Shown here: one piece after another, positions 28,220 through 37,505 of the stretch
Position numbering within the stretch: the first letter of the stretch is position 1
Layout of the letters: each line of letters opens with the position of its first letter
Assembly: GCA_041655695.1 (NCBI GenBank)
Contig: JBBAEW010000001.1
Location: 30,999-94,998, forward strand
From: Saccharofermentanales bacterium
GTDB taxonomy: Bacteria; Bacillota; Clostridia; Saccharofermentanales; DTU023
Direction: 5' to 3'
DNA length: 64,000 nucleotides
Notes under the pieces: model-generated
Databases searched by the model: none
Told to the model about the DNA's origin: nothing
The model's input: only the letters and a program-made list of their open reading frames with translations
Made by a program: the position numbers and the translations under genes

Positions 28220-29350
28220 TTACCAGGGATTGACAGGGGGAGTCATGCAGAGATGAACCAGGACTGCCAGGATGCCAAAAAGAAGCAGGCCGGCCATGCT
28301 GGACAGGAGTTCATGAATCCAGGGTGATTTGCGCAAGGCCTTGCCGCTGACAACGGAGGAAACAAACTGGCCCAGGAGACTTCCCGCCAGGAGCCCCAGA
28401 TAGAAGGCCGGTGACTGGAAGATGGGGGTCAGGTCATCGAAGAGCAGATAGACAAAGCGCCCCAGGCTTACCCCGCCAAAGAGGGCAAAAAGCGGTTGCA
28501 GCAACCTGTGCCAGGTCAGCTGGCCGTTTCGGATACCGGCCCGTTCAGAAGGTCTCCGCCTGAAAAAGAACCAGGACAGAACCAGCCAGAAGACGAGCGG
28601 GATGAGATCCTGTGCCAGGGGTCTTATCCAGATAAAGTCAGTAATAAAACCGGCCGCGGGCGTCAGCAGCCAGAGGAGGCTGGAAGGCGGACTGCCGAGC
28701 CGCCCTGACATGGAGAGGACGTTGAGGATGGAAAAGAACCAGGCCATCTGCAGGCCAAGATTCAGGAGGATGGCATCAAAGAGGGTCCCCGACAGGGTAT
28801 ACCAGACCAGGCTGAAGGCAAGCAGCTGGAAAGCTGCCCCCGCCATACTCAGGTAGAGGCGGAGATAGTCCAGAAAATGGCTGAAGAGATCCCATTGGTA
28901 GAAGATGAGGCCAGTGAAAGCCGCGTTGAGTGTCAGGATCAGGGCCAGGCTGGTCATCAGCGCCAGAAGCCGGCCAAGAAACTGCTGGCCGCTTCTTAAA
29001 GGCAGGCTGACTTCGCTGTCAACAGTCTTCATCTGGAAGAGATAGCGGAATTGGGCCCCGCTCATGAGATAGACAGAAGCCACGGTGATCAGGCTTGTGA
29101 TCAGGTGCAGGGGAAAAAGAACCGGATTGGCGTAAATCTCCCCGTCCATGTAGAGAGAATCCGGCATATATGAGGTCAGATCAAAATAATTCTGCCTGCC
29201 GATAATCAGAAGAACCACGGGCATGGCCAGAAATGTCAGGAAGAGGAAGAATAAAGCAATGGAGCGGGTGCGGGCCAAAGCCTGCCGGAAGACCCAGGCT
29301 GTCCCGGGCATGGCCGCAAGCTCTTTGTGACGGTCACCTTCTTTGGTCAT
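28220..29350 (-). CDS. polytopic membrane protein (putative ABC permease component)
   Basis: 376-aa ORF, paralogous N-terminal region to 26281..28212. 17 nt downstream of the ABC ATPase. Confidence 0.6.
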   Translation of the reverse strand: MTKEGDRHKELAAMPGTAWVFRQALARTRSIALFFLFLTFLAMPVVLLIIGRQNYFDLTSYMPDSLYMDGEIYANPVLFPLHLITSLITVASVYLMSGAQFRYLFQMKTVDSEVSLPLRSGQQFLGRLLALMTSLALILTLNAAFTGLIFYQWDLFSHFLDYLRLYLSMAGAAFQLLAFSLVWYTLSGTLFDAILLNLGLQMAWFFSILNVLSMSGRLGSPPSSLLWLLTPAAGFITDFIWIRPLAQDLIPLVFWLVLSWFFFRRRPSERAGIRNGQLTWHRLLQPLFALFGGVSLGRFVYLLFDDLTPIFQSPAFYLGLLAGSLLGQFVSSVVSGKALRKSPWIHELLSSMAGLLLFGILAVLVHLCMTPPVNPW

Positions 29351-29367
29351 GTCGTCTCCTCCAATCC

Positions 29368-30312
29368 TCAGGCCAGAAGTTCGCTGACCGCGTACTGCCT
29401 GAGGCTCAGTTCATAAATGAAGACTTCTTCCAGTGAAAGGGGGAGGACGTCAAAAAGCAGGGGATCCAGAGTCCATATAAGCCTTTTGACTTCTTCTTCC
29501 GTTCCGCGGGCCAGGATCTCGACCAGGGAGCCCCTTTCTTTGTATTGCAGAATATTAAGGCCCAGTTGGGCCAGCTGGGCCTGGCTGACCGGCTGGGCAA
29601 AGGCAGCCTGGATCTTGACAATGCTCAGTCTCAATTTGTCCAGCTCTTCGACGAAAAGGAGGCCGCCCTGGTGCAGCAAGCCCACGTGGTCACAAAAATC
29701 TTCCAGCTCCCGGAGGTTTTGCGAGGCAATCAGGACGGTCATCCCCTGGTCGGCAACCTGCCTGGCCAGGACGCGCTTGAGGTTCTGGCGCATGACCGGA
29801 TCCAAACCATCGAAGGCCTCGTCCATCAAGAGGAGTTTGGGTCCCGCCGCGATGGCCAGGAGAACGGCGGCCTGTCTTTGCAAACCCTTGGACATGCGGT
29901 CCAGCCGATTCTTTTCACCCAGGGGGAAAACCCGGAGCAGTTCCTGGTAAAGAGCCTGATCCCAGTTGAGGTAGAGGGAGCGGAAGAGGCGGGCCATCTT
30001 CTCCAGGGTCTCAAAGGGGAAATAGGGCTGGTCGGCAACAAAAAGGATTTCCTGCTTGGCAGAGGCGTTCTCGAAGACCGCCTTCCCCTTGAAGAGCATC
30101 TGGCCTGCTGTTGGCTTATAGACACCCGCAGCCAGCCTCAGAAAGGTTGATTTGCCCGCCCCGTTCGAACCGATCAGACCGAAGATCGAAGAACCTGAAA
30201 TCCGGCAGGTCACCTGGTCCAGAGCTTTGACCGTTCCGAATTCCTTGCTCAGCTCCAGGGCCGACAGGACGGACTCCTCACCGTTTACCATTGAATTTGA
30301 TTGGGTTTCCAT
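29368..30312 (-). CDS. ABC transporter ATP-binding protein
   Basis: ORF with Walker A GSNGAGKST, signature MSKGLQRQ and Walker B LLLMDEAFDGLD. Confidence 0.9.
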   Translation of the reverse strand: METQSNSMVNGEESVLSALELSKEFGTVKALDQVTCRISGSSIFGLIGSNGAGKSTFLRLAAGVYKPTAGQMLFKGKAVFENASAKQEILFVADQPYFPFETLEKMARLFRSLYLNWDQALYQELLRVFPLGEKNRLDRMSKGLQRQAAVLLAIAAGPKLLLMDEAFDGLDPVMRQNLKRVLARQVADQGMTVLIASQNLRELEDFCDHVGLLHQGGLLFVEELDKLRLSIVKIQAAFAQPVSQAQLAQLGLNILQYKERGSLVEILARGTEEEVKRLIWTLDPLLFDVLPLSLEEVFIYELSLRQYAVSELLA

Positions 30313-30329
30313 GGCTCTTTCACCTTTCC

Positions 30330-30716
30330 TTACTCAGATGATTCGCGCTGCTCTTCCAGGCAGCTGTCCAGGATTTGATGGAGGGTTTCAGGTGCCAGGC
30401 CCGCTACCCAGGCAACCTGGGCGGCATGGCGGAAAGAGCGCCGGATCTCTTCTTTCTCCAGGGTCTGGTCCTGTTTTTGGCCGGACAGAAAATTGCCCCT
30501 GCCGGGCACTGCGTAAATCAGGCCTTCCTGTTCCATTTCCCGATAGGCCTTCTGAACTGTATTGGGATTGATGCCAAGTTCCGCCGCCATCTGCCGGACC
30601 GAGGGCAGCTGCTGATCAGGATCCATCAGGCCCAGGGCGGCCATCCGCTGGAAGGAACGCTTGAGCTGCTGGTAGAGCGGTACACCGCTTTGGTAATTGA
30701 TCTCCGGATAGACCAT
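30330..30716 (-). CDS. GntR-family (YtrA-like) transcriptional regulator
   Basis: 128-aa ORF with a winged HTH (LPSVRQMAAELGINPNTVQKAYREMEQEGLIY). First gene of the ABC module. Confidence 0.88.
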   Translation of the reverse strand: MVYPEINYQSGVPLYQQLKRSFQRMAALGLMDPDQQLPSVRQMAAELGINPNTVQKAYREMEQEGLIYAVPGRGNFLSGQKQDQTLEKEEIRRSFRHAAQVAWVAGLAPETLHQILDSCLEEQRESSE

Positions 30717-30813: not shown

Positions 30814-30839
30814 AAAAAAGGGGGCTGCCAAGAGCCCCC
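30814..30839 (-). terminator. rho-independent terminator after pntB
   Basis: Minus strand GGGGGCT-CTTGGC-AGCCCCC followed by T6, about 22 nt after the pntB stop. Confidence 0.75.
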
Positions 30840-30861
30840 TTGATCTTGTAATCGATTCAGG

Positions 30862-33480
30862 TTAACACTTGCGGTAGGCCCGGATCAGGGCGTTGAGTGT
30901 TTCCTTGGCGTCCCCCAGAAGGAGAGCGATCTGGTCCCGGTAATCCGACTCGTAGAGCGGATTGTCTACGCCGGCGTAACCGGGCTGCCTGTCATAGTTG
31001 CAGATAATGACGTGCCTGGCTTCTTCCACATCCAGAATGGGCATGCCGTAGATGGGGGTTCCTTCCGCTGTGTTGGCGGCAGGATTGACCACGTCGTTGG
31101 CTCCGATAATGAGCGCCACGTCGGCTTCCTTGAAGGCAGGGTTGATGTCCTGCATTTCATGAAGCTTGTCGTAGGGCACATCAACTTCCGCCAGAAGGAC
31201 GTTCATGTGGCCGGGCATTCTGCCCGCAACCGGGTGGATGGCGAATTGGACATCCTTGCCTTCTGCCTCCAGTTCAGCCATCAGCTGCTTGACCAGTGAC
31301 TGGGCCTGTGAGATGGCCATGCCGTAGCCCGGTACGATGATGACCCGCTTGGAGTCCCGCAGCCATTGACCTGCCGCGTCTTCGGGCAGAGCCTTCCCAT
31401 CTTCCGTTTGCGCCGGAACCCGGCAGACCCGGTAAGCCTGCATGATGGCGTTCAAGGAGTCCTTGGCGTCGCCGAACATGAGGGCGATATGATCCTGGCG
31501 CCCCGGTTCGTAGAGGGGGTTGTCCACGCCCGCGTAGCCGGGCAGGCTGTCAAAGTTACACATGATGACGTGCCGGGCCTCTTCCACATCCAGGATGGGC
31601 ATGCCGTAAATAGGCGTCCCCTGGGCGGTATTGGCGGCCGGGTTGACCACATCGTTGGCGCCGATGACGATGACCACATCGGTCTCTTTAAAGGCGGGGT
31701 TGATGGCGTCCATCTCGCAGAGTTTATCGTAGGGAATATCGACCTCAGCCAGGAGGACGTTCATGTGGCCCGGCATTCTGCCCGCCACAGGGTGGATGGC
31801 GAAGCGGACATCCTTGCCTTCCTGCTCCAGTTCAGCCGTCAAATGCTTGACGGTTGCCTGGGCCTGGGAAAGCGCCATGCCGTAGCCGGGGACGATGATG
31901 ATCCGCTCGGCATCACGCAGCCAGTTGCCGCATTGGAGTTCGGTCGAAAGAGCCTGGCCTTCGGGCTGAGCCTGGCCGTCTCCGGCCTCGGCCGCCCGGT
32001 AGGATTTCATGATGGCATTGAGTGTTTCCTTGGCATCGCCCAGCATGAGGGCGATATGGTCTTCACGGCCTGCGTCATAGAGGGGATTGTCCACTCCGGC
32101 GTACCCGGGCATCCGGTCGAAGTTACACAGGATAACCTTCCGGGCCTCCTCGACATCCAGGATGGGCATACCGTAGATGGGAGTTCCCTCCGCTGTGTTG
32201 GCAGCGGGGTTAATGACGTCGTTGGCGCCGATGACAAGGGCCACATCCGTATCCTTGAATTCATCATTGATGTCCTGCATCTCGTAGAGCTTGTCGTAGG
32301 GAACATCAACTTCAGCCAGGAGAACATTCATGTGACCCGGCATTCTGCCGGCGACCGGGTGGATGGCGAACTTGACTTCCTTGCCCTGGGCTTCCAGTTC
32401 AGTCATCAGCTGCTTGACCAGGGACTGAGCCTGGGAAATAGCCATGCCATAGCCAGGCACGATGATAACGCGTTCCGCGTCACGCAGCCAGCAGCCGCAG
32501 GCTTCATCCGCAGACAGGGCTTCCCTGGCGCACTCCGCTTCCTTGGCAGGAGCGTCTTTCTTGGAGGCAGCCGGTTTGCTTGGTGTTGAGGTTTTGCCCA
32601 GCAGGATTTCAAAGAGCTTGCGGTTCATGGCCCGGCACATGATTTGTGTCAGCAGCAGGCCGGAGGCTCCGACAACACCGCCAATGGCGACCAGGAGCGG
32701 GTCATTGATGGCCATACCAGCGATGGAGCCGGCAACACCCGACAGGGAGTTGAGCAGTGAAATGGTGATGGGCATATCCGCCCCGCCAACGCGGATGGCA
32801 AAGATAACGCCGAAGGCTCCCGACAAAAGAGCAGAAAGGACGATGAGCACAGCCTTGAAGACCAAAGCCTCCTGGGTGGCCGGCAGGGCCAGCAAGGCGA
32901 CTGTGATCAGTGAGCCGATAAGGGTCAGGGCAGTCCAGACCGGATGGCCCTTGAGGACGATGGGGCGCTGGGGCATGACACCCTGCAGTTTGCCGGCCGC
33001 CACCAGGCTGCCGGTCAGGGTAAGGGACCCCACAAAGATGGCCAGTCCGGCTGTAACCAGGGAGAAAATAGTCTCCGTGGGGCCGGCCGCGATCAGGGTC
33101 AGGATTCCCGCCAGCATGGAGGCACCGCCGCCCAGTCCGTTGAGCAGGCCCACCATCTGCGGCATCTGGATCATCTTGACCTTCATGGCTATGAAGAGAC
33201 CCAGGAGCAGGCCGACCAGCATGGCGATCCAGAGTTCAACAAAGGTGAAGATATCGAAATACCACAAGGTCAGGACAATGGCCAGCAGCATGCTGACCGC
33301 GCCCAGGGCGTTCCCGGCCACTGACCGCTCAACGCGGCTCATCATGGCGATACCGGCCAGGACGGCAACGGTCAGGATACCTGCGGCTATGTAATAGATG
33401 ATCATGTGGGTGGAGGAACCCGCTTCTGCGGGCATGGCCGCTGCTATCAGGGGAAGGCGGGCAAGAAGAGTCGCGATCAT
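30862..33480 (-). CDS. pntB: NAD(P) transhydrogenase subunit beta with triplicated C-terminal NADP(H)-binding dIII domain
   Basis: 872-aa ORF. Residues 1-290 match the PntB membrane domain (VGGADMPITISLLNS, LTQIMCRAMNR). The dIII block (GYGMA, HPVAGRMPGHMNVLLAE, GANDV-NPAA, GYAGVDNPLY, GDAK) then occurs three times in tandem. Confidence 0.9.
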   Translation of the reverse strand: MIATLLARLPLIAAAMPAEAGSSTHMIIYYIAAGILTVAVLAGIAMMSRVERSVAGNALGAVSMLLAIVLTLWYFDIFTFVELWIAMLVGLLLGLFIAMKVKMIQMPQMVGLLNGLGGGASMLAGILTLIAAGPTETIFSLVTAGLAIFVGSLTLTGSLVAAGKLQGVMPQRPIVLKGHPVWTALTLIGSLITVALLALPATQEALVFKAVLIVLSALLSGAFGVIFAIRVGGADMPITISLLNSLSGVAGSIAGMAINDPLLVAIGGVVGASGLLLTQIMCRAMNRKLFEILLGKTSTPSKPAASKKDAPAKEAECAREALSADEACGCWLRDAERVIIVPGYGMAISQAQSLVKQLMTELEAQGKEVKFAIHPVAGRMPGHMNVLLAEVDVPYDKLYEMQDINDEFKDTDVALVIGANDVINPAANTAEGTPIYGMPILDVEEARKVILCNFDRMPGYAGVDNPLYDAGREDHIALMLGDAKETLNAIMKSYRAAEAGDGQAQPEGQALSTELQCGNWLRDAERIIIVPGYGMALSQAQATVKHLTAELEQEGKDVRFAIHPVAGRMPGHMNVLLAEVDIPYDKLCEMDAINPAFKETDVVIVIGANDVVNPAANTAQGTPIYGMPILDVEEARHVIMCNFDSLPGYAGVDNPLYEPGRQDHIALMFGDAKDSLNAIMQAYRVCRVPAQTEDGKALPEDAAGQWLRDSKRVIIVPGYGMAISQAQSLVKQLMAELEAEGKDVQFAIHPVAGRMPGHMNVLLAEVDVPYDKLHEMQDINPAFKEADVALIIGANDVVNPAANTAEGTPIYGMPILDVEEARHVIICNYDRQPGYAGVDNPLYESDYRDQIALLLGDAKETLNALIRAYRKC
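30865..32508 (-). repeat. three tandem in-frame coding repeats (dIII-1 31990..32508, dIII-2 31423..31953, dIII-3 30865..31389)
   Basis: The equivalent point GTTCATGTGG/ATTCATGTGA recurs at 31201, 31759 and 32326, giving periods of 558 and 567 nt. By manual alignment over 165 aa the copies are about 79-83% identical in protein. Confidence 0.9.
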
Positions 33481-33785
33481 GACTGTTTCCCCCCTTCCTT
33501 GGATTTGCTGCTGTGGAACATGCGGAGCATGCGATCCGTTACCCCAAAGCCGCCGACGACGTTAATCATGGCCAGCACGATGGCAATGAAGCCCATAATT
33601 TTGCTGCCCCAATGGGCGGCTGCGGCGGTCGCTGAAAGGCAGCCCAGGACCGTGACACCGGAAAAAGCGTTCATGCCCGACATCAGCGGCGTATGCAGCA
33701 AACTGGGTACACGGTTGATAATCTTATAACCGACCAGGGTTGCCACAACAAAGACAGCGATCAGAATCCCCTGTGTTGTTGTCAT
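33477..33785 (-). CDS. pntAB: NAD(P) transhydrogenase subunit alpha part 2 (membrane)
   Basis: ORF 33477..33875 trimmed to ATG 33785 (MTTTQGIL) behind AAGGAG. Has LHTPLMSGMNAFSG and NVVGGFGVTDRML motifs and an ATGA overlap with pntB. Confidence 0.85.
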   Translation of the reverse strand: MTTTQGILIAVFVVATLVGYKIINRVPSLLHTPLMSGMNAFSGVTVLGCLSATAAAAHWGSKIMGFIAIVLAMINVVGGFGVTDRMLRMFHSSKSKEGGKQS

Positions 33786-33828
33786 AGAAAACTCCTTGCA
33801 ATTTTGACGTTCATATTTCTCCCCACAG

Positions 33829-33856
33829 AAAAAGGCCGCACCCCGAAGGGTGCGGC
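33829..33856 (-). terminator. strong intrinsic terminator inside the pnt operon (between pntAA and pntAB)
   Basis: Minus strand GCCGCACCC-TTCG-GGGTGCGGC (9-bp GC-rich stem, UUCG tetraloop) followed by C then T5. Lies 16 nt after the pntAA stop. Confidence 0.75.
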
Positions 33857-33871
33857 TTCCTGTGGCGACTA

Positions 33872-35038
33872 TCAATGACCAAGTGCGGCGAAAGCCTCCA
33901 GCGCCCCCTGATGGACGACTTTCCCCTGGTGGGTGGTCAGGGCGCTCTGGACGATTTCATCATCCATATCCAGATGGATGCTGCCGTCTTTAACCAGATA
34001 CTTGAGCAGATTGTAAACGTTCTGGGCGAACATCCAGGTCGAGCTGGTGGGCAGCAGGCCCGGGATATTCTTGATACCGATCAGGGTCACGCTGTGCTTG
34101 ACCTCGATGGTGCCGGGCGGGGTGATCTCGCAGTTGCCGCCCTGGTCGATGGAGATATCGACGATAGCGGAACCCGGCTTCATGGTCTTGACCATTTCCT
34201 CTGTCAGCAGGTTGGGAGCAAGCTTGCCGGGGACCAGAGCCGCCAGGAAAATAATATCCATATCCTTGACGTGCTCGGCCAGAAGGCGGCGCTCCTCTTC
34301 CAGGCGTTTCTCGGACAGGGCCAGGGCGTAGCCTCCCTCACCGATGGCCTCCTGGGCAGGAACCTTGAGATCAATGATCTTGGCGCCAAGTGACATGGCC
34401 TGTTCAGCAGCATCGGGCCGGATATCCGCAGCGTAGACCACGGCGCCCAGACGCTTGGCTGTCGCGATTGCCTGCAGTCCGCCGACGCCGGCGCCGATGA
34501 CCAGGACGTTGATGGGCTTGATCATGCCGACAGCGGTGAAGATCTGCGGGACGAAGTTGGGCAGTTCATTGGCAGCGATCAGCATGCCCTTATAGCCGGC
34601 GCAGGTGCTCATGGAGGTCAGGGCGTCCATGACCTGGGCGCGGGTGATCCGGGGGATCCCGTCCAGCGTGATGCTGGTCACGCCCTGGGCGGCCATGTGC
34701 TTGACCATGTCATGATTGACCGGAGCCGCGGGGTGGATGAAGGTGATCAGGGTCTGTCCCTCATGCATCATGTCAACTTCGTGTTTGCCCTGCTCTTTGT
34801 TAAAGAGGGGCTCCTTGACTTTCAGGATAACGTCAGCGCGTTCAAAGAGCTTGCTGACATCTTCGACAATTTCAGCTCCGGCAGCCGCGTATTCCGGATC
34901 GTGGTAGAAAGCCCCCTCACCGGCATTCTTCTCGACCAGGACGGTCAAGCCGTCACCTACCATCTTTGCGACTGTTTCAGGCGAGGCGGCAACGCGACGC
35001 TCCCCCGGCATGATTTCCTTTGGGACACCGATAATCAT
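33872..35038 (-). CDS. pntAA: NAD(P) transhydrogenase subunit alpha part 1 (dI, NAD(H)-binding)
   Basis: 388-aa ORF with an alanine-dehydrogenase-like fold (IGVPKEIMPGERRVA, VLVIGAGVGGLQAIATAKRLGA). Confidence 0.92.
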   Translation of the reverse strand: MIIGVPKEIMPGERRVAASPETVAKMVGDGLTVLVEKNAGEGAFYHDPEYAAAGAEIVEDVSKLFERADVILKVKEPLFNKEQGKHEVDMMHEGQTLITFIHPAAPVNHDMVKHMAAQGVTSITLDGIPRITRAQVMDALTSMSTCAGYKGMLIAANELPNFVPQIFTAVGMIKPINVLVIGAGVGGLQAIATAKRLGAVVYAADIRPDAAEQAMSLGAKIIDLKVPAQEAIGEGGYALALSEKRLEEERRLLAEHVKDMDIIFLAALVPGKLAPNLLTEEMVKTMKPGSAIVDISIDQGGNCEITPPGTIEVKHSVTLIGIKNIPGLLPTSSTWMFAQNVYNLLKYLVKDGSIHLDMDDEIVQSALTTHQGKVVHQGALEAFAALGH

Positions 35039-35096: not shown

Positions 35097-35327
35097 GGGT
35101 AAGTGACAATGGAGTTGTAAAGAACTTACAGAGGCGGACAGACCGGTCAATTTCCGGATACGTGGTATCATTTTTCATAGGTTCGAAAGACGCGGCAAGC
35201 GGCTGTAGCCGGCGCAGGCCGGGAGGGTATCAAAGTGGTTGCGATTTATCCTGAAACACTTATAGACGAGTGGCTGGCTGACTCGGGAGAGTGGTTCCTT
35301 GACCCGGAGAAGGAAGCCGCGGGGCGG

Positions 35328-37505
35328 ATGACCCAGCTGCTTTACCCTTATCGGGCCCTTTTCTCACCCCTGCGAATCAACCAGCTGACCTTAAAGAACC
35401 GCCTGATCATGGCCCCCATGGGCAATATCTCCATGGCCGAGGAGACAGGACGGCCGAGCCCTTCCATGATTGCCTATTATGAGGAACGGGCCAGAGGCGG
35501 TGTCGGTCTGGTCACTTCGGGCCTGGTTCCCGTTTCCTTTGGCATCGACCCCTCCCTGACCGAGCCGGGTAAACTGACCTACTTCCCCAAAATCCTGGGA
35601 AGCCGCACCCATCTGGCCGGCTGGCGGGATCTGGCCCATGCCGTACACGCGGGCGGGGCTCACTTCTTCATCCAACTGTCGGCGGGCCTGGGCCGTGTCG
35701 GCAATCCTCAATGCCTGATCAACCAGGGGAAATTCCCGGTTTCCGCCTCCTTCAACCCCAATTTCTACCTGCCGGGGGTTCCCTGTCTGCGCCTGTCTGG
35801 CAGGAAGCTCAAGCGTATTGTCAAAAATTTCGGCCAGGCAGCGGCAGACGCCAAAGAAGCCACCATCGATGGTGTTTATCTGCACGGCCACGAGGGCTAC
35901 CTTCTGGAGCAGATGTCCAACCGGGCCTTCAACAGGAGGAAGGTTGGCCGTTATGCCGACTGGCAGCGATTCGGCCTGGATGCGGTCAGGGAGATCCGCA
36001 GGCGGACCGGGCCCGACTACCCCATCATGTACCGGATTGACCTGTCGCTGGCCCTGAAGGCGACCTATGGGGACCGCATGGATACGGTCAAATCTCTGGC
36101 CAAATTCAAGCGTGAACGCACCCTCAATGAGACCTTCGCTTACATGAGGAACCTGGTTGAGGCCGGCGTGGACCTCTTCGATGTCGATCTGGGCTGCTAC
36201 GACAACTGGTGGCTGCCCCATCCGCCGGAGACCATGAAACCCGGCCTCTTTCTGGAGGTTGCTCAGGCGGCCAAAGACTTCTTCTTCGAGCACAAAATTG
36301 TCACCAACCAGGGCCAGCCGGTCGCCATCGCCGCAGTCGGCAAGCTGGGCTACCCGGATCTGGCGGAAAAAGCCCTGGCGGATGGCCTGTGCGACCTGGT
36401 TATGCTGGGACGGCCCTTGCTGGCCGATCCCCAGTGGCCCAACAAGGCCTATGCCGGCTGTGTCCCGGATATCCGGCCCTGTATCGGCTGCCAGGAGGCC
36501 TGTGTCCATGAATTCATCCAGGGCGGTCACCCCATGTGCGCCGTCAATCCGCGGACTTCCTTCGAGCTGACCCTGCCGGCAGAGATCAGCCGCGCCCCCC
36601 AAAGCAAACGTCTGGCGGTCGTGGGTGCGGGCCCTGCCGGCTTTGAGTGCGCCATGGCGGCCCTTGACCGGGGCCATGAGGTTCACCTCTTCGATCTGCA
36701 GCCGGGTGTCGGCGGCATGGTCCGGCTGGCATCCGTCCCCCCCTTCAAAAGAGATACCCGCAACTACCTGGAGTGGATGGAGCGCACTGCTTCCAAGGCC
36801 CGCAGGGATAATCCCCTCTTCCGCCTGAAGACGGGGACGGAGGCGACCTTGAAAGTGCTGACGGAGGGTCAATACCAGGCCATCGTCTGTGCCACGGGCA
36901 GCCGGGAACGGATTCCTGAGCTGGAGGGAATTGAAGTGGCCCTGTCGGCCCGCGATCTCCTGCGCAACCCCTCCCTCCTTGAAGGCAAAGAGCGAGTGGT
37001 CATTCTGGGGGGCGGTCAGCTGGGCTGTGAAATTGCCTTCATGGCGGCATCGGCCTACAAGCTCTCCGTCACCCTGGTGGAGCGGCTCCCCAACCTGATG
37101 GAAGGGGTCTGCACGGCCAACCGCGGCCACCTGATCCACGAGCTGGAGAAACGCCAGGTCCAGGTGATGAACGCTGCCAAAGCTTTGGCGCTGGAGCCGG
37201 GCAAAGTCATGGTTGAAGTCAATGTCTCGCCCACGGTCCCAGACCCTTACAATACCTGGAACCCCCTCCTGCCCAAAAATGTACCCAATCCCCTGGCACG
37301 GCCTATCAAGGAAGTCCTGGAGAAGAGGGAGCTGGACGCGGATCTGATCGTCCTGGCCACGGGCAGTCAGGCCAATGATGAACTCTACCGCCTGCTCCTG
37401 GAAACATACGCTGCGCCTCAGATTCACCTGATCGGGGATGCCGACCGGCCGGGCATGATCGTCCAGGCCGTGCGGGCAGGCTACCGGACCGGAATTAATC
37501 TCTAG
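35328..37505 (+). CDS. OYE-family NADH:flavin oxidoreductase fused to FAD/NAD(P)-binding domain (2,4-dienoyl-CoA/enoate reductase-like)
   Basis: ORF 35235..37505. The N-terminal LFSPLRINQLTLKNRLIMAPMG TIM-barrel start favours ATG 35328; GTG 35235 behind GGGAGGG is an alternative. Has a Cys cluster CIGCQEAC and a dinucleotide fold LAVVGAGPAGFECA. Confidence 0.8.
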   Translation: MTQLLYPYRALFSPLRINQLTLKNRLIMAPMGNISMAEETGRPSPSMIAYYEERARGGVGLVTSGLVPVSFGIDPSLTEPGKLTYFPKILGSRTHLAGWRDLAHAVHAGGAHFFIQLSAGLGRVGNPQCLINQGKFPVSASFNPNFYLPGVPCLRLSGRKLKRIVKNFGQAAADAKEATIDGVYLHGHEGYLLEQMSNRAFNRRKVGRYADWQRFGLDAVREIRRRTGPDYPIMYRIDLSLALKATYGDRMDTVKSLAKFKRERTLNETFAYMRNLVEAGVDLFDVDLGCYDNWWLPHPPETMKPGLFLEVAQAAKDFFFEHKIVTNQGQPVAIAAVGKLGYPDLAEKALADGLCDLVMLGRPLLADPQWPNKAYAGCVPDIRPCIGCQEACVHEFIQGGHPMCAVNPRTSFELTLPAEISRAPQSKRLAVVGAGPAGFECAMAALDRGHEVHLFDLQPGVGGMVRLASVPPFKRDTRNYLEWMERTASKARRDNPLFRLKTGTEATLKVLTEGQYQAIVCATGSRERIPELEGIEVALSARDLLRNPSLLEGKERVVILGGGQLGCEIAFMAASAYKLSVTLVERLPNLMEGVCTANRGHLIHELEKRQVQVMNAAKALALEPGKVMVEVNVSPTVPDPYNTWNPLLPKNVPNPLARPIKEVLEKRELDADLIVLATGSQANDELYRLLLETYAAPQIHLIGDADRPGMIVQAVRAGYRTGINL

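Follow-up and report, generated by a model that had tools for sequence, protein, structure and literature searches.

The pnt Operon and the Architecture of Its PntB Subunit

The window analyzed here, a 64,000-nt stretch of contig JBBAEW010000001.1 from a Saccharofermentanales bacterium (assembly GCA_041655695.1, positions 30,999 to 94,998 of the forward strand), carries on its reverse strand pntAA-pntAB-pntB, a genuine operon for a three-subunit membrane transhydrogenase in which pntB is the last gene and encodes a β subunit in which dIII, the domain that binds NADP(H), stands three times in tandem behind a single membrane domain dII. pntAA (33872..35038, −) encodes the soluble NAD(H)-binding domain dI as a separate polypeptide of 388 aa (Pfam AlaDh_PNT_N, 3.7e-44; AlaDh_PNT_C, 2.7e-59), and its best relative of solved structure is α1 of Thermus thermophilus (E = 2.5e-88). 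pntAB (33477..33785, −) encodes the small membrane subunit of 102 aa (α2, transmembrane helices [TM] 2–4; Pfam PNTB_4TM, 2.7e-31); its true start is the ATG at 33785, which has an AAGGAG ribosome-binding site ahead of it, and an independent contig is also called with 102 aa. The start of pntB and the stop of pntAB overlap (ATGA), which suggests translational coupling. The 872-aa PntB (30862..33480, −) begins with ATG and its reading frame is unbroken over 872 codons; this open reading frame (ORF) is identified by Pfam, by our own hidden Markov models (HMMs), and by the NCBIfam model PRK09444.

Pfam model PF02233 (PNTB) hits PntB in three stretches, and HMMs for dII and dIII that were built from the PntB sequence itself place dII at residues 25–295 and dIII at residues 331–496, 520–685, and 706–871. 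The architecture is thus dII-dIII-dIII-dIII, with three complete dIII domains behind one dII, as an earlier note made from the sequence alone had claimed, and it also supports the statement in that note that only copy 1 is tethered directly to dII. The dII domain (32596..33408, −) has nine TM helices, as judged from alignments to the β subunits of Escherichia coli and T. thermophilus, from a family survey, and from the helices of an AlphaFold2 model. It is joined by an Ala/Lys/Pro-rich linker (residues 296–330; 32491..32595, −) to dIII copy 1 (31993..32490, −), which is followed by linker 1 (residues 497–519, AEAGDGQAQPEGQALSTELQCGN; 31924..31992, −), dIII copy 2 (31426..31923, −), linker 2 (residues 686–705, CRVPAQTEDGKALPEDAAGQ; 31366..31425, −), and dIII copy 3 (30868..31365, −), all three copies being delimited by HMM and alignment and the protein ending one residue after the last. 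Measured between the HMM ends, the linkers are 35, 23, and 20 aa long, and they are rich in Ala, Glu, Pro, Gln, and Gly. A full-chain AlphaFold2 model of PntB has a predicted local distance difference test (pLDDT) score of 67 and a predicted template modeling (pTM) score of 0.34; the linkers are of low confidence (pLDDT below 50 at residues 296–321, 498–509, and 687–696), and the arrangement and docking of the heads cannot be read from it.

Each dIII copy starts with a WLRD anchor, at residues 331, 520, and 706; the first two positions had been given correctly before, and the third had been placed at 707. The motifs listed as kept in every copy (GYGMA, HPVAGRMPGHMNVLLAE, GANDV, GYAGVDNPLY, and GDAK) indeed occur three times each, and the segments starting at 31201, 31759, and 32326, computed from the motif positions, all encode FAIHPVAGRMPGHMN as had been read. 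A DNA repeat finder run on pntB detected three 300-nt copies with spacings of 558 and 567 nt. Two antisense ORFs lie opposite pntB across the repeats (31366–32589, +, 407 aa, and 32462–33394, +, 310 aa) and are thought by us to result from the GC-rich codons of the coding strand and not to be genes.

Divergence and Selection among the dIII Copies

Over 166 aligned residues, copies 1 and 2 are 78.9% identical in protein sequence, copies 1 and 3 are 82.5% identical, and copies 2 and 3 are 78.3% identical, with a DNA identity of ~78%. The copy–copy differences are distributed over the three codon positions at ~25/10/75, three quarters of the DNA differences being in third positions, and these values agree with the 79% and 83% identities and the predominance of synonymous differences estimated previously. 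Synonymous divergence (dS) between the three copies is 0.96–1.30, and the ratio of nonsynonymous to synonymous divergence (dN/dS, or ω) is 0.08–0.14. In comparisons of PntB with eight orthologs, ω is 0.04–0.19 for every domain; dIII copy 2 shows a dN/dS of 0.07–0.18 and copy 3 one of 0.05–0.11, and each dIII, with values of 0.04–0.18, is comparable to or below dII. In most of these comparisons dN is lowest for copy 1 (0.04–0.10 in seven and 0.15 in one). The proposal in the earlier note of an old triplication with all copies under purifying selection therefore holds both between copies and between orthologs.

Within the clade of the query, the consensus sequences of the three copies disagree at just 17 of the 166 positions, all of which are variable sites, and at a threshold of 0.8 we found no sites that are conserved within each copy yet differ between copies, so that subfunctionalization of the copies finds no support in this comparison. 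Neither the clade consensus nor the ortholog comparison gave any sign of decay in the copies. The appearance of a decaying extra dIII is illustrated by two proteins from the search of cluster representatives described later, P0254 (664 aa, KRS-type) and P0255 (659 aa), which are two-dIII PntBs with a degenerate second copy. The HPVAGR motif is broken in both second copies (HPLAGHMPG together with GYGAGRAQ in P0254, and HPYAGRILGH in P0255), in contrast to the intact copies of the query PntB.

The divergence of the copies also bears on the trivial explanation that the repeat is an artifact or a neutral expansion, that is, the product of mis-assembly, a pseudogene, or a set of neutral copies. 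Tandem repeats are prone to assembly errors, and the finding of three versus four copies in Porphyromonas endodontalis (see below) could reflect a collapsed repeat in one assembly. However, DNA copies that are only ~78% identical are too diverged for collapse or expansion, and because of this 22% divergence repeat mis-assembly is not a possible source; in addition, the reading frame is intact, an identical 872-aa protein with the same neighbors is called on at least five other contigs, and there are many homologs, the closest of which include proteins from megabase-scale contigs. Neutrality is excluded because dN/dS is ~0.1 at a dS of ~1. We consider this explanation effectively refuted.

Distribution of Multi-dIII PntB Proteins

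The best 120 protein hits to the query are without exception multi-dIII PntBs. Three dIII copies are present in 29 of them (845–880 aa), four in 83 (~970–1155 aa), and five in 6 (1168–1234 aa), whereas the remaining two are N-terminally truncated fragments. A scan of one genome per species returned more than 588 matching loci, and with these two results the possibility that the query is a singleton oddity was rejected. Copy forms were read in the best 80 of these loci. Among them, two-copy forms are encoded in Ruminococcaceae, Treponema, Parabacteroides, Hoylesella marshii, Prevotella, and Merdimmobilis hominis, three-copy forms in Saccharofermentanales/Mageeibacillus metagenome-assembled genomes (MAGs) and Porphyromonas uenonis, and four-copy forms in Dysgonomonas massiliensis and P. 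circumdentaria; the closest relatives of the query are the Saccharofermentanales/Mageeibacillus MAGs, at 71–83% identity. The protein search additionally recovered multi-dIII proteins from Desulfovibrio and Anaerococcus, and PntBs with two, three, four, and five copies are spread over four phyla. All 78 loci in which both upstream genes are present have one separate pntAA (~390 aa) and one pntAB (~100 aa).

An exhaustive HMMER search over 1.84 billion cluster representatives gave 754 dIII-bearing representatives at E ≤ 1e-30. Because about 20 of the best 150 of these (50%-identity clusters) carry two or more dIII stretches, multi-dIII PntB is a recurrent minority state. The representative-level counts given here and later refer to the best 150 hits to a query with the N-x-D form of loop E (see below); proteins of the KR type with two intact heads would still be listed among these hits, because single KR-type domains score ~190–200 bits.

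The equivalog model PRK09444 (NCBIfam) scores 743 bits on the query PntB against a cutoff of 689 when its three stretches are summed, and because the summed stretches pass the cutoff automated annotation assigns the plain PntB name. Hundreds of PntBs with two to five dIII domains stand in public databases under that name. No published account of a multi-dIII transhydrogenase was found in open-access papers and bioRxiv, subscription journals lying beyond that reach, and within this literature the earlier statement that none has been described is borne out; the Desulfovibrio literature that we found deals with NfnAB and not with multi-dIII PntB. A 2026 structural paper describes the protomer as dI, dII, and dIII, of which only the splitting into one, two, or three subunits varies, and all 16 distinct matching sequences among solved structures carry a single dIII.

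Repeated Gain or Homogenization of dIII Copies

The copies within one protein are 78–96% identical, and up to 100% identical in some cultured genomes, versus 57–70% when compared with distant lineages. Positional orthology, in which copy 1 groups with copy 1 and so on, is seen only among close relatives of the query. Copy–copy dS is 0.02 in a Treponema MAG, 0.05 between copies 1 and 2 of a P. endodontalis MAG, 0.4–0.5 among the first three copies of D. massiliensis, and above 2 in several lineages. With positional orthology limited to the close clade and dS ranging from 0.02 to above 2, a single ancient triplication inherited by all members was rejected. The copies have been gained repeatedly, or homogenized, and then held nearly unchanged, repeated duplication and concerted evolution being not fully separable. 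The first three copies of D. massiliensis, for example, are 99% identical in protein at a DNA divergence of ~8% (ω ~0.02). In P. endodontalis, the MAG (locus L028) has four dIII copies, the first two of which are 99% identical in DNA, and the assembly of the type strain ATCC 35406 (locus L068) has three and is without the extra one; this is either a within-species copy-number polymorphism or a collapsed repeat in one assembly.

Loop E of the dIII Domains

The KRS motif of loop E (K424-R425-S426 in E. coli β) is replaced by NFD in copies 1 and 2 and by NYD in copy 3 of the query (residues 453–455, 642–644, and 828–830, within 30868–32490, −). This motif and loop E belong to the NADP(H) site, and loops D and E make the site specific to NADP(H) as opposed to NAD(H) (PMC9529548). 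Loop E reads KRS in Rhodospirillum rubrum and KRG in T. thermophilus. Across the 460 dIII copies of the 120 multi-dIII proteins, by contrast, the triplet has N in 460, Y or F in 439, and D in 457 copies, and a conserved Pro at position 429 comes after it. In the same 460 copies, there is little or no variation at residues G314, Y315, H345, R350, D392, G430, and Y431 (numbered as in E. coli) or in the motifs GYG, HPVAGR(M/L)PGH, GANDxxNP, and the GYAG of loop E, which are likewise (near-)invariant in the three query copies; each query copy matches solved dIII structures at E ~1e-52. The copies therefore retain the listed motifs and the pocket residues but not every NADP(H) motif, the KRS of loop E being absent.

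The N-x-D form is shared by ~105 single-dIII PntBs that are nearest to the query in dII sequence and also carry N-[Y/F]-D, and the view that it arose as an adaptation of multi-dIII proteins alone was accordingly rejected. There is a clean separation between KR and N-x-D types, with co-variation at further dIII positions (in E. coli numbering, R/K to N at 399, D to A at 401, S to T at 404, a change to K at 428, and F to Y at 439). As judged from these alignments, loop E in the N-x-D subfamily of PntB reads N-[F/Y/L]-D and not K-R-S. Multi-dIII proteins make up 15 of the 56 N-x-D representatives versus 1 of the 83 KR-type representatives (p = 3.7e-6), and the sole KR-type case has a degenerate second copy; intact multi-dIII forms are essentially confined to the N-x-D subfamily. 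We found neither a solved structure nor a characterized member of this subfamily.

This association bears on a reading in which the distal heads work without dII. In the published cycle, dIII exchanges NADP(H) only when it is attached face-down to dII and is occluded on detachment (PMC13635403). If detached N-x-D heads, which lack the Lys-Arg pair of KRS, instead exchanged nucleotide freely, coupling to the channel would be left to head 1 alone; the two distal heads and the soluble dI dimer, (dI)2, would make up membrane-anchored hydride-transfer sites that are uncoupled or cyclic, or an NADP(H)/hydride buffer, and the extra heads would multiply catalytic sites or shift the effective ion-per-hydride ratio. 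The replacement of KRS in 460 of 460 copies, at the very loop that sets specificity (PMC9529548), fits this reading, and the ratio of 15/56 to 1/83 suggests that the change in loop E makes extra heads useful or tolerable; the somewhat stronger constraint on copy 1 than on copies 2 and 3 and the short inter-head linkers point the same way. However, the NADPH/NADP+ disequilibrium built up by a coupled site would be run down by an uncoupled site beside it, copies 2 and 3 are not relaxed or diverged at conserved sites as would be expected if their role in docking to dII had been lost, and single-head N-x-D enzymes are common, so the loop E change is not itself a multi-head adaptation. Autonomous distal heads would explain why heads are multiplied in the N-x-D subfamily only; on balance we regard them as rather unlikely, though as the main rival to the swinging heads preferred below.

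The Membrane Channel

The query dII aligns with known dII domains, and to that extent the description of residues 1–290 as a normal dII was right; it does not extend to the central channel histidine, which is absent at both of its known positions in the query and throughout the subfamily survey. This histidine is described as the sole protonatable residue of the E. coli channel. The position of E. coli β His91 (TM9) is occupied by Asn114 in the query PntB (33139–33141), as in T. thermophilus β, where the Asn also sits in an NG[LM]GGGA motif, and the position of the gating His42 of T. thermophilus α2 (TM3) is occupied by Ser42 in the query PntAB (33660–33662), as in E. coli. The TM9 position is Asn in 135 of 139 N-x-D-type dII domains, and all 79 related loci have Ser or Ala at α2 position 42, where two single-dIII operons have Ser. 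Position 42 being Ser/Ala, a relocation of the histidine to α2 in the manner of T. thermophilus was rejected; a shift to a third channel position is possible.

Other dII residues are retained or are peculiar to the subfamily. Asn244, Asp235, and Ser158 (N222, D213, and S139 of E. coli β) are conserved at 99% or more in the subfamily. His179 (98%; 32944–32946) and Arg230 (99%; 32791–32793) characterize N-x-D-type dII domains, whereas KR types, of which 10 were compared, have Gln and Pro/Ser at these positions; Gln171 and Ser121, in or near cytoplasmic loops, are likewise conserved in the N-x-D type in this comparison. His179 lies at the cytoplasmic end of TM11, and both His179 and Arg230 are at the cytoplasmic face where dIII docks, which is compatible with two roles: they may form a charge swap with the Asp of loop E, or they may supply phosphate contacts in trans.

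Because histidines are missing at the known positions (Ser42 in PntAB and Asn114 in PntB), the coupling ion and the gating cannot be assumed to be canonical, and the chemistry of nucleotide gating and ion coupling probably differs in detail from that of the E. coli, T. thermophilus, and mitochondrial enzymes. Enzymes of EC 7.1.1.1 are defined by the reaction NADH + NADP+ <-> NAD+ + NADPH with one H+ translocated; since loop E is changed and the histidine absent, neither strict NADP(H) specificity of dIII nor H+ as the coupling ion should be assumed from the sequence here. A more radical proposal is that the whole N-x-D, histidine-less subfamily is differently coupled, using Na+ or a gating that needs no titratable residue in the channel, its positive charges coming from the dII loops (Arg230/His179) and not from loop E, and that nucleotide exchange no longer depends on the canonical occlusion cycle. 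Na+-based energetics are common among such anaerobes, and the literature search returned titles on the Na+-NQR of Prevotella. Exchange without an occlusion cycle would explain the repeated selection of extra heads in this subfamily, and head number would then be a dial on the hydride-per-ion stoichiometry or the throughput of an ion-motive redox enzyme. We think it improbable that the departure from the canonical enzyme goes this far.

A Proposed Role of the dIII Copies as Swinging Heads

It is established that the architecture is dII-dIII-dIII-dIII, that multi-dIII forms are widespread, that duplication has recurred, and that all copies are held under equally strong constraint. For the function of the copies, work on other transhydrogenases provides a frame: once detached, dIII transfers hydride with (dI)2, which takes up dIII domains one after another and never two at once, and in three-subunit enzymes (dI)2 must stay bound to a dIII (PMC13635403). 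Because the heads are intact, equally constrained, mutually indistinguishable, and flexibly linked, we favor the reading, with a probability of roughly 45%, that they are interchangeable swinging heads which alternate between the untethered (dI)2 and dII; the alternation and any kinetic benefit from it are what we infer. Every one of the three heads would hold nucleotide and take part in hydride transfer with the free (dI)2 dimer, and when one was docked face-down on dII, where nucleotide is exchanged and the ion step takes place, another could be face-up on (dI)2. Such an arrangement would provide more hydride-transfer heads and more productive encounters per membrane channel, and the covalently untethered (dI)2 would always have a head to hold and would be kept on the complex.

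Several points weigh against swinging heads. It is questionable whether the distal heads reach dII: across the family the inter-head linkers have a median of 20 aa, which includes a part of the following head's N-terminal helix, against a median of 35 aa for the linker from dII to head 1. The stronger constraint on copy 1 hints at some asymmetry among the heads. Three-subunit enzymes of the KR type, such as those of R. rubrum and T. thermophilus, also have a free (dI)2, and no multi-head form with intact copies was found among them; dI retention alone therefore cannot explain the distribution. Moreover, with an altered loop E and no channel histidine, the canonical cycle of docking and occlusion may not apply.

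The supply of dI is relevant here and brings in a further possibility. The 85-nt spacer between pntAA and pntAB (33786–33871) contains a GC-rich hairpin followed by a U-run, detected in a scan for terminator-like elements (33835..33856, −); its stem is GCCGCACCC-UUCG-GGGUGCGGC, and its folding energy is −42.7 kcal/mol (z = −4.4). The hairpin is kept with compensatory stem changes in the clade relatives L002, L003, L005–L010, L015, and L070, and comparable spacer hairpins are present in 21 of 78 related loci. It may act as a partial terminator or as a 3′ mRNA-stabilizing element and so set a high dI:PntB ratio, and a raised dI output would fit all models in which the demand for dI rises with the number of heads. 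In one such model the extra heads are mainly a scaffold, which recruits (dI)2 dimers to the membrane or senses the NADP(H) pool with little net catalysis. In favor of this are the separate soluble dI encoded in all 78 loci, the conserved spacer hairpin that could raise the PntAA:PntB ratio, and the need of (dI)2 to stay bound to a dIII in three-subunit enzymes (PMC13635403). Yet pure scaffolds rarely keep all catalytic and pocket residues over 460 copies, or an ω of 0.02–0.1, and where a second dIII has drifted, as in P0254 and P0255, the pocket motifs decay in a way not seen in the query. A predominantly scaffolding role is therefore quite improbable.

The linkers speak to another alternative. 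Across the family the inter-copy linkers have a median length of 20 aa and are rich in Ala, Glu, Ser, Pro, and Gly, and the linker between dII and head 1 has a median of 35 aa. Were PntB a polyprotein-like precursor, cleavage in these exposed, low-complexity linkers would free dIII domains for a soluble transhydrogenase with (dI)2, and isolated dI and dIII do form an active (dI)2(dIII) heterotrimer (PMC13635403). However, no conserved cleavage motif was found in the family linkers, whose sequence and length vary freely, and no protease gene was seen in the pnt operon. We know of no precedent for polyprotein processing in the PntB family and consider such processing very improbable. The interchangeable swinging heads remain our preferred reading, and the functional ideas put forward in the earlier note (recruitment of extra dI dimers, NADP(H) buffering, and a change in coupling ratio) may also hold.

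Operon End and Flanking Genes

An intrinsic-terminator-like hairpin with a T-run lies 20 nt past the pntB stop (30818..30841, −; a 9-bp stem with 6 GC pairs, then TTTTTCTG) and is predicted to mark the end of the operon. Divergent from the pnt operon, at 35235–37505 (+), is a gene for a 756-aa enzyme with Oxidored_FMN and Pyr_redox_2 domains, an architecture like that of 2,4-dienoyl-CoA reductase/NADH oxidase; it is likely an NAD(P)H consumer, and the same neighbor is present on the independent contig L082. Downstream of pntB, at 26281–30716 (−), are genes for a GntR-family regulator (30330–30716), an ABC ATPase (29368–30312), and two large polytopic membrane proteins. Of the latter, one (28220–29350) was scanned with Pfam and gave no match, and the other is at 26281–28212; the group resembles an ABC-2-type exporter cassette with a linked GntR regulator and without relation to pnt.

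Implications of a Multi-dIII Class

Transhydrogenase is the standard example of an enzyme in which conformational changes couple a redox reaction over a long range to an ion channel, and current models all have one dIII per dII, which swivels between dI and dII. Two to five equivalent heads per channel, repeatedly selected, put the one-head-per-channel mechanism directly to the test. If distal heads reach dII in turn, they set geometric and kinetic limits on the swivel of dIII; if hydride transfer and exchange run away from dII, obligatory occlusion is contradicted. The PntAB form that lacks both KRS and the central histidine is used by a large group of medically and industrially relevant anaerobes, among them Porphyromonas, Treponema, Desulfovibrio, bacteria of the Prevotella group, and Clostridia of the gut and of digesters. 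The Pfam PNTB model, which spans dII and dIII, and the summing of stretches in the NCBI equivalog hide the architecture, and metabolic reconstructions treat these proteins as ordinary PntB. The three-subunit PntAB transhydrogenase is a known system; the widespread multi-dIII class that we propose, within an uncharacterized N-x-D, histidine-less PntAB subfamily, comprises proteins with at least two complete dIII domains after one dII, intact pocket residues in each of them, and low-complexity linkers, and the query shows all of these features.

Comparison with Known Systems

The three-subunit systems of T. thermophilus (α1, α2, and β; PDB 4O9U, 4O9P, and 4IZH) and R. rubrum (PntAA, PntAB, and PntB) have the same gene order and subunit division as the query, with a soluble dI of ~385 aa, a membrane subunit of ~100 aa, and a β subunit composed of dII and then dIII, and they are the best solved relatives of the query PntAA, PntAB, and PntB (E = 2.5e-88, 8.3e-20, and 2.3e-89, respectively). 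The dIII fold and most pocket residues are kept at 53–57% identity. Unlike in these systems, the query β has three dIII domains, and its loop E reads N-F/Y-D where theirs reads K-R-G/S; unlike T. thermophilus, the query has Ser42 of PntAB in place of the gating His42, and its dII loops carry the His179 and Arg230 of the subfamily.

All three domains are also homologous to those of the two-subunit E. coli PntAB (PDB 9L76 and related entries) and the single-chain mitochondrial NNT (PDB 6QTI). Residues N222, D213, S139, G314, Y315, H345, R350, D392, G430, and Y431 of E. coli β are all kept in the query, which differs from both enzymes in its unfused dI, the replacement of His91 by Asn and of KRS by NFD or NYD, and the three-headed β subunit. 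The canonical holoenzyme is (dI)2(dII)2(dIII)2, and the published catalytic cycle takes it that each dII has a single dIII and that (dI)2 is tethered; the query departs from both assumptions. In dII sequence, the nearest proteins are the single-dIII N-x-D PntBs of Clostridia and other Bacillota (e.g., P0126, P0164, and P0196; 55–73% identity), which resemble the query in having an N-[Y/F]-D loop E, a three-subunit operon, and a Ser at α2 position 42. They have one dIII and a length of 457–517 aa, whereas the query clade has added two more copies.

An analogy for the tandem heads may be drawn with swinging carrier domains. The E2 component of E. coli pyruvate dehydrogenase has three lipoyl domains, and polyunsaturated fatty acid (PUFA) synthases have tandem acyl carrier protein (ACP) domains. 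In these arrays, as in PntB, near-identical mobile domains stand in tandem on flexible Ala/Pro-rich linkers, and their copy number varies between species; each carrier domain shuttles a reaction intermediate between fixed catalytic stations, as each dIII would in our preferred reading. The folds are unrelated, however, and the cargo of dIII is a non-covalent dinucleotide that is also exchanged with the medium; Pfam detected no lipoyl or phosphopantetheine attachment domain in PntB, and the likeness is one of architecture only and not of homology. By homology, the query is best assigned as a three-subunit PntAB transhydrogenase (EC 7.1.1.1) that is structurally closest to the T. thermophilus enzyme and that, judged from its sequence, departs from three traits by which such enzymes are usually defined: one dIII per dII, the KRS motif, and the central channel histidine.

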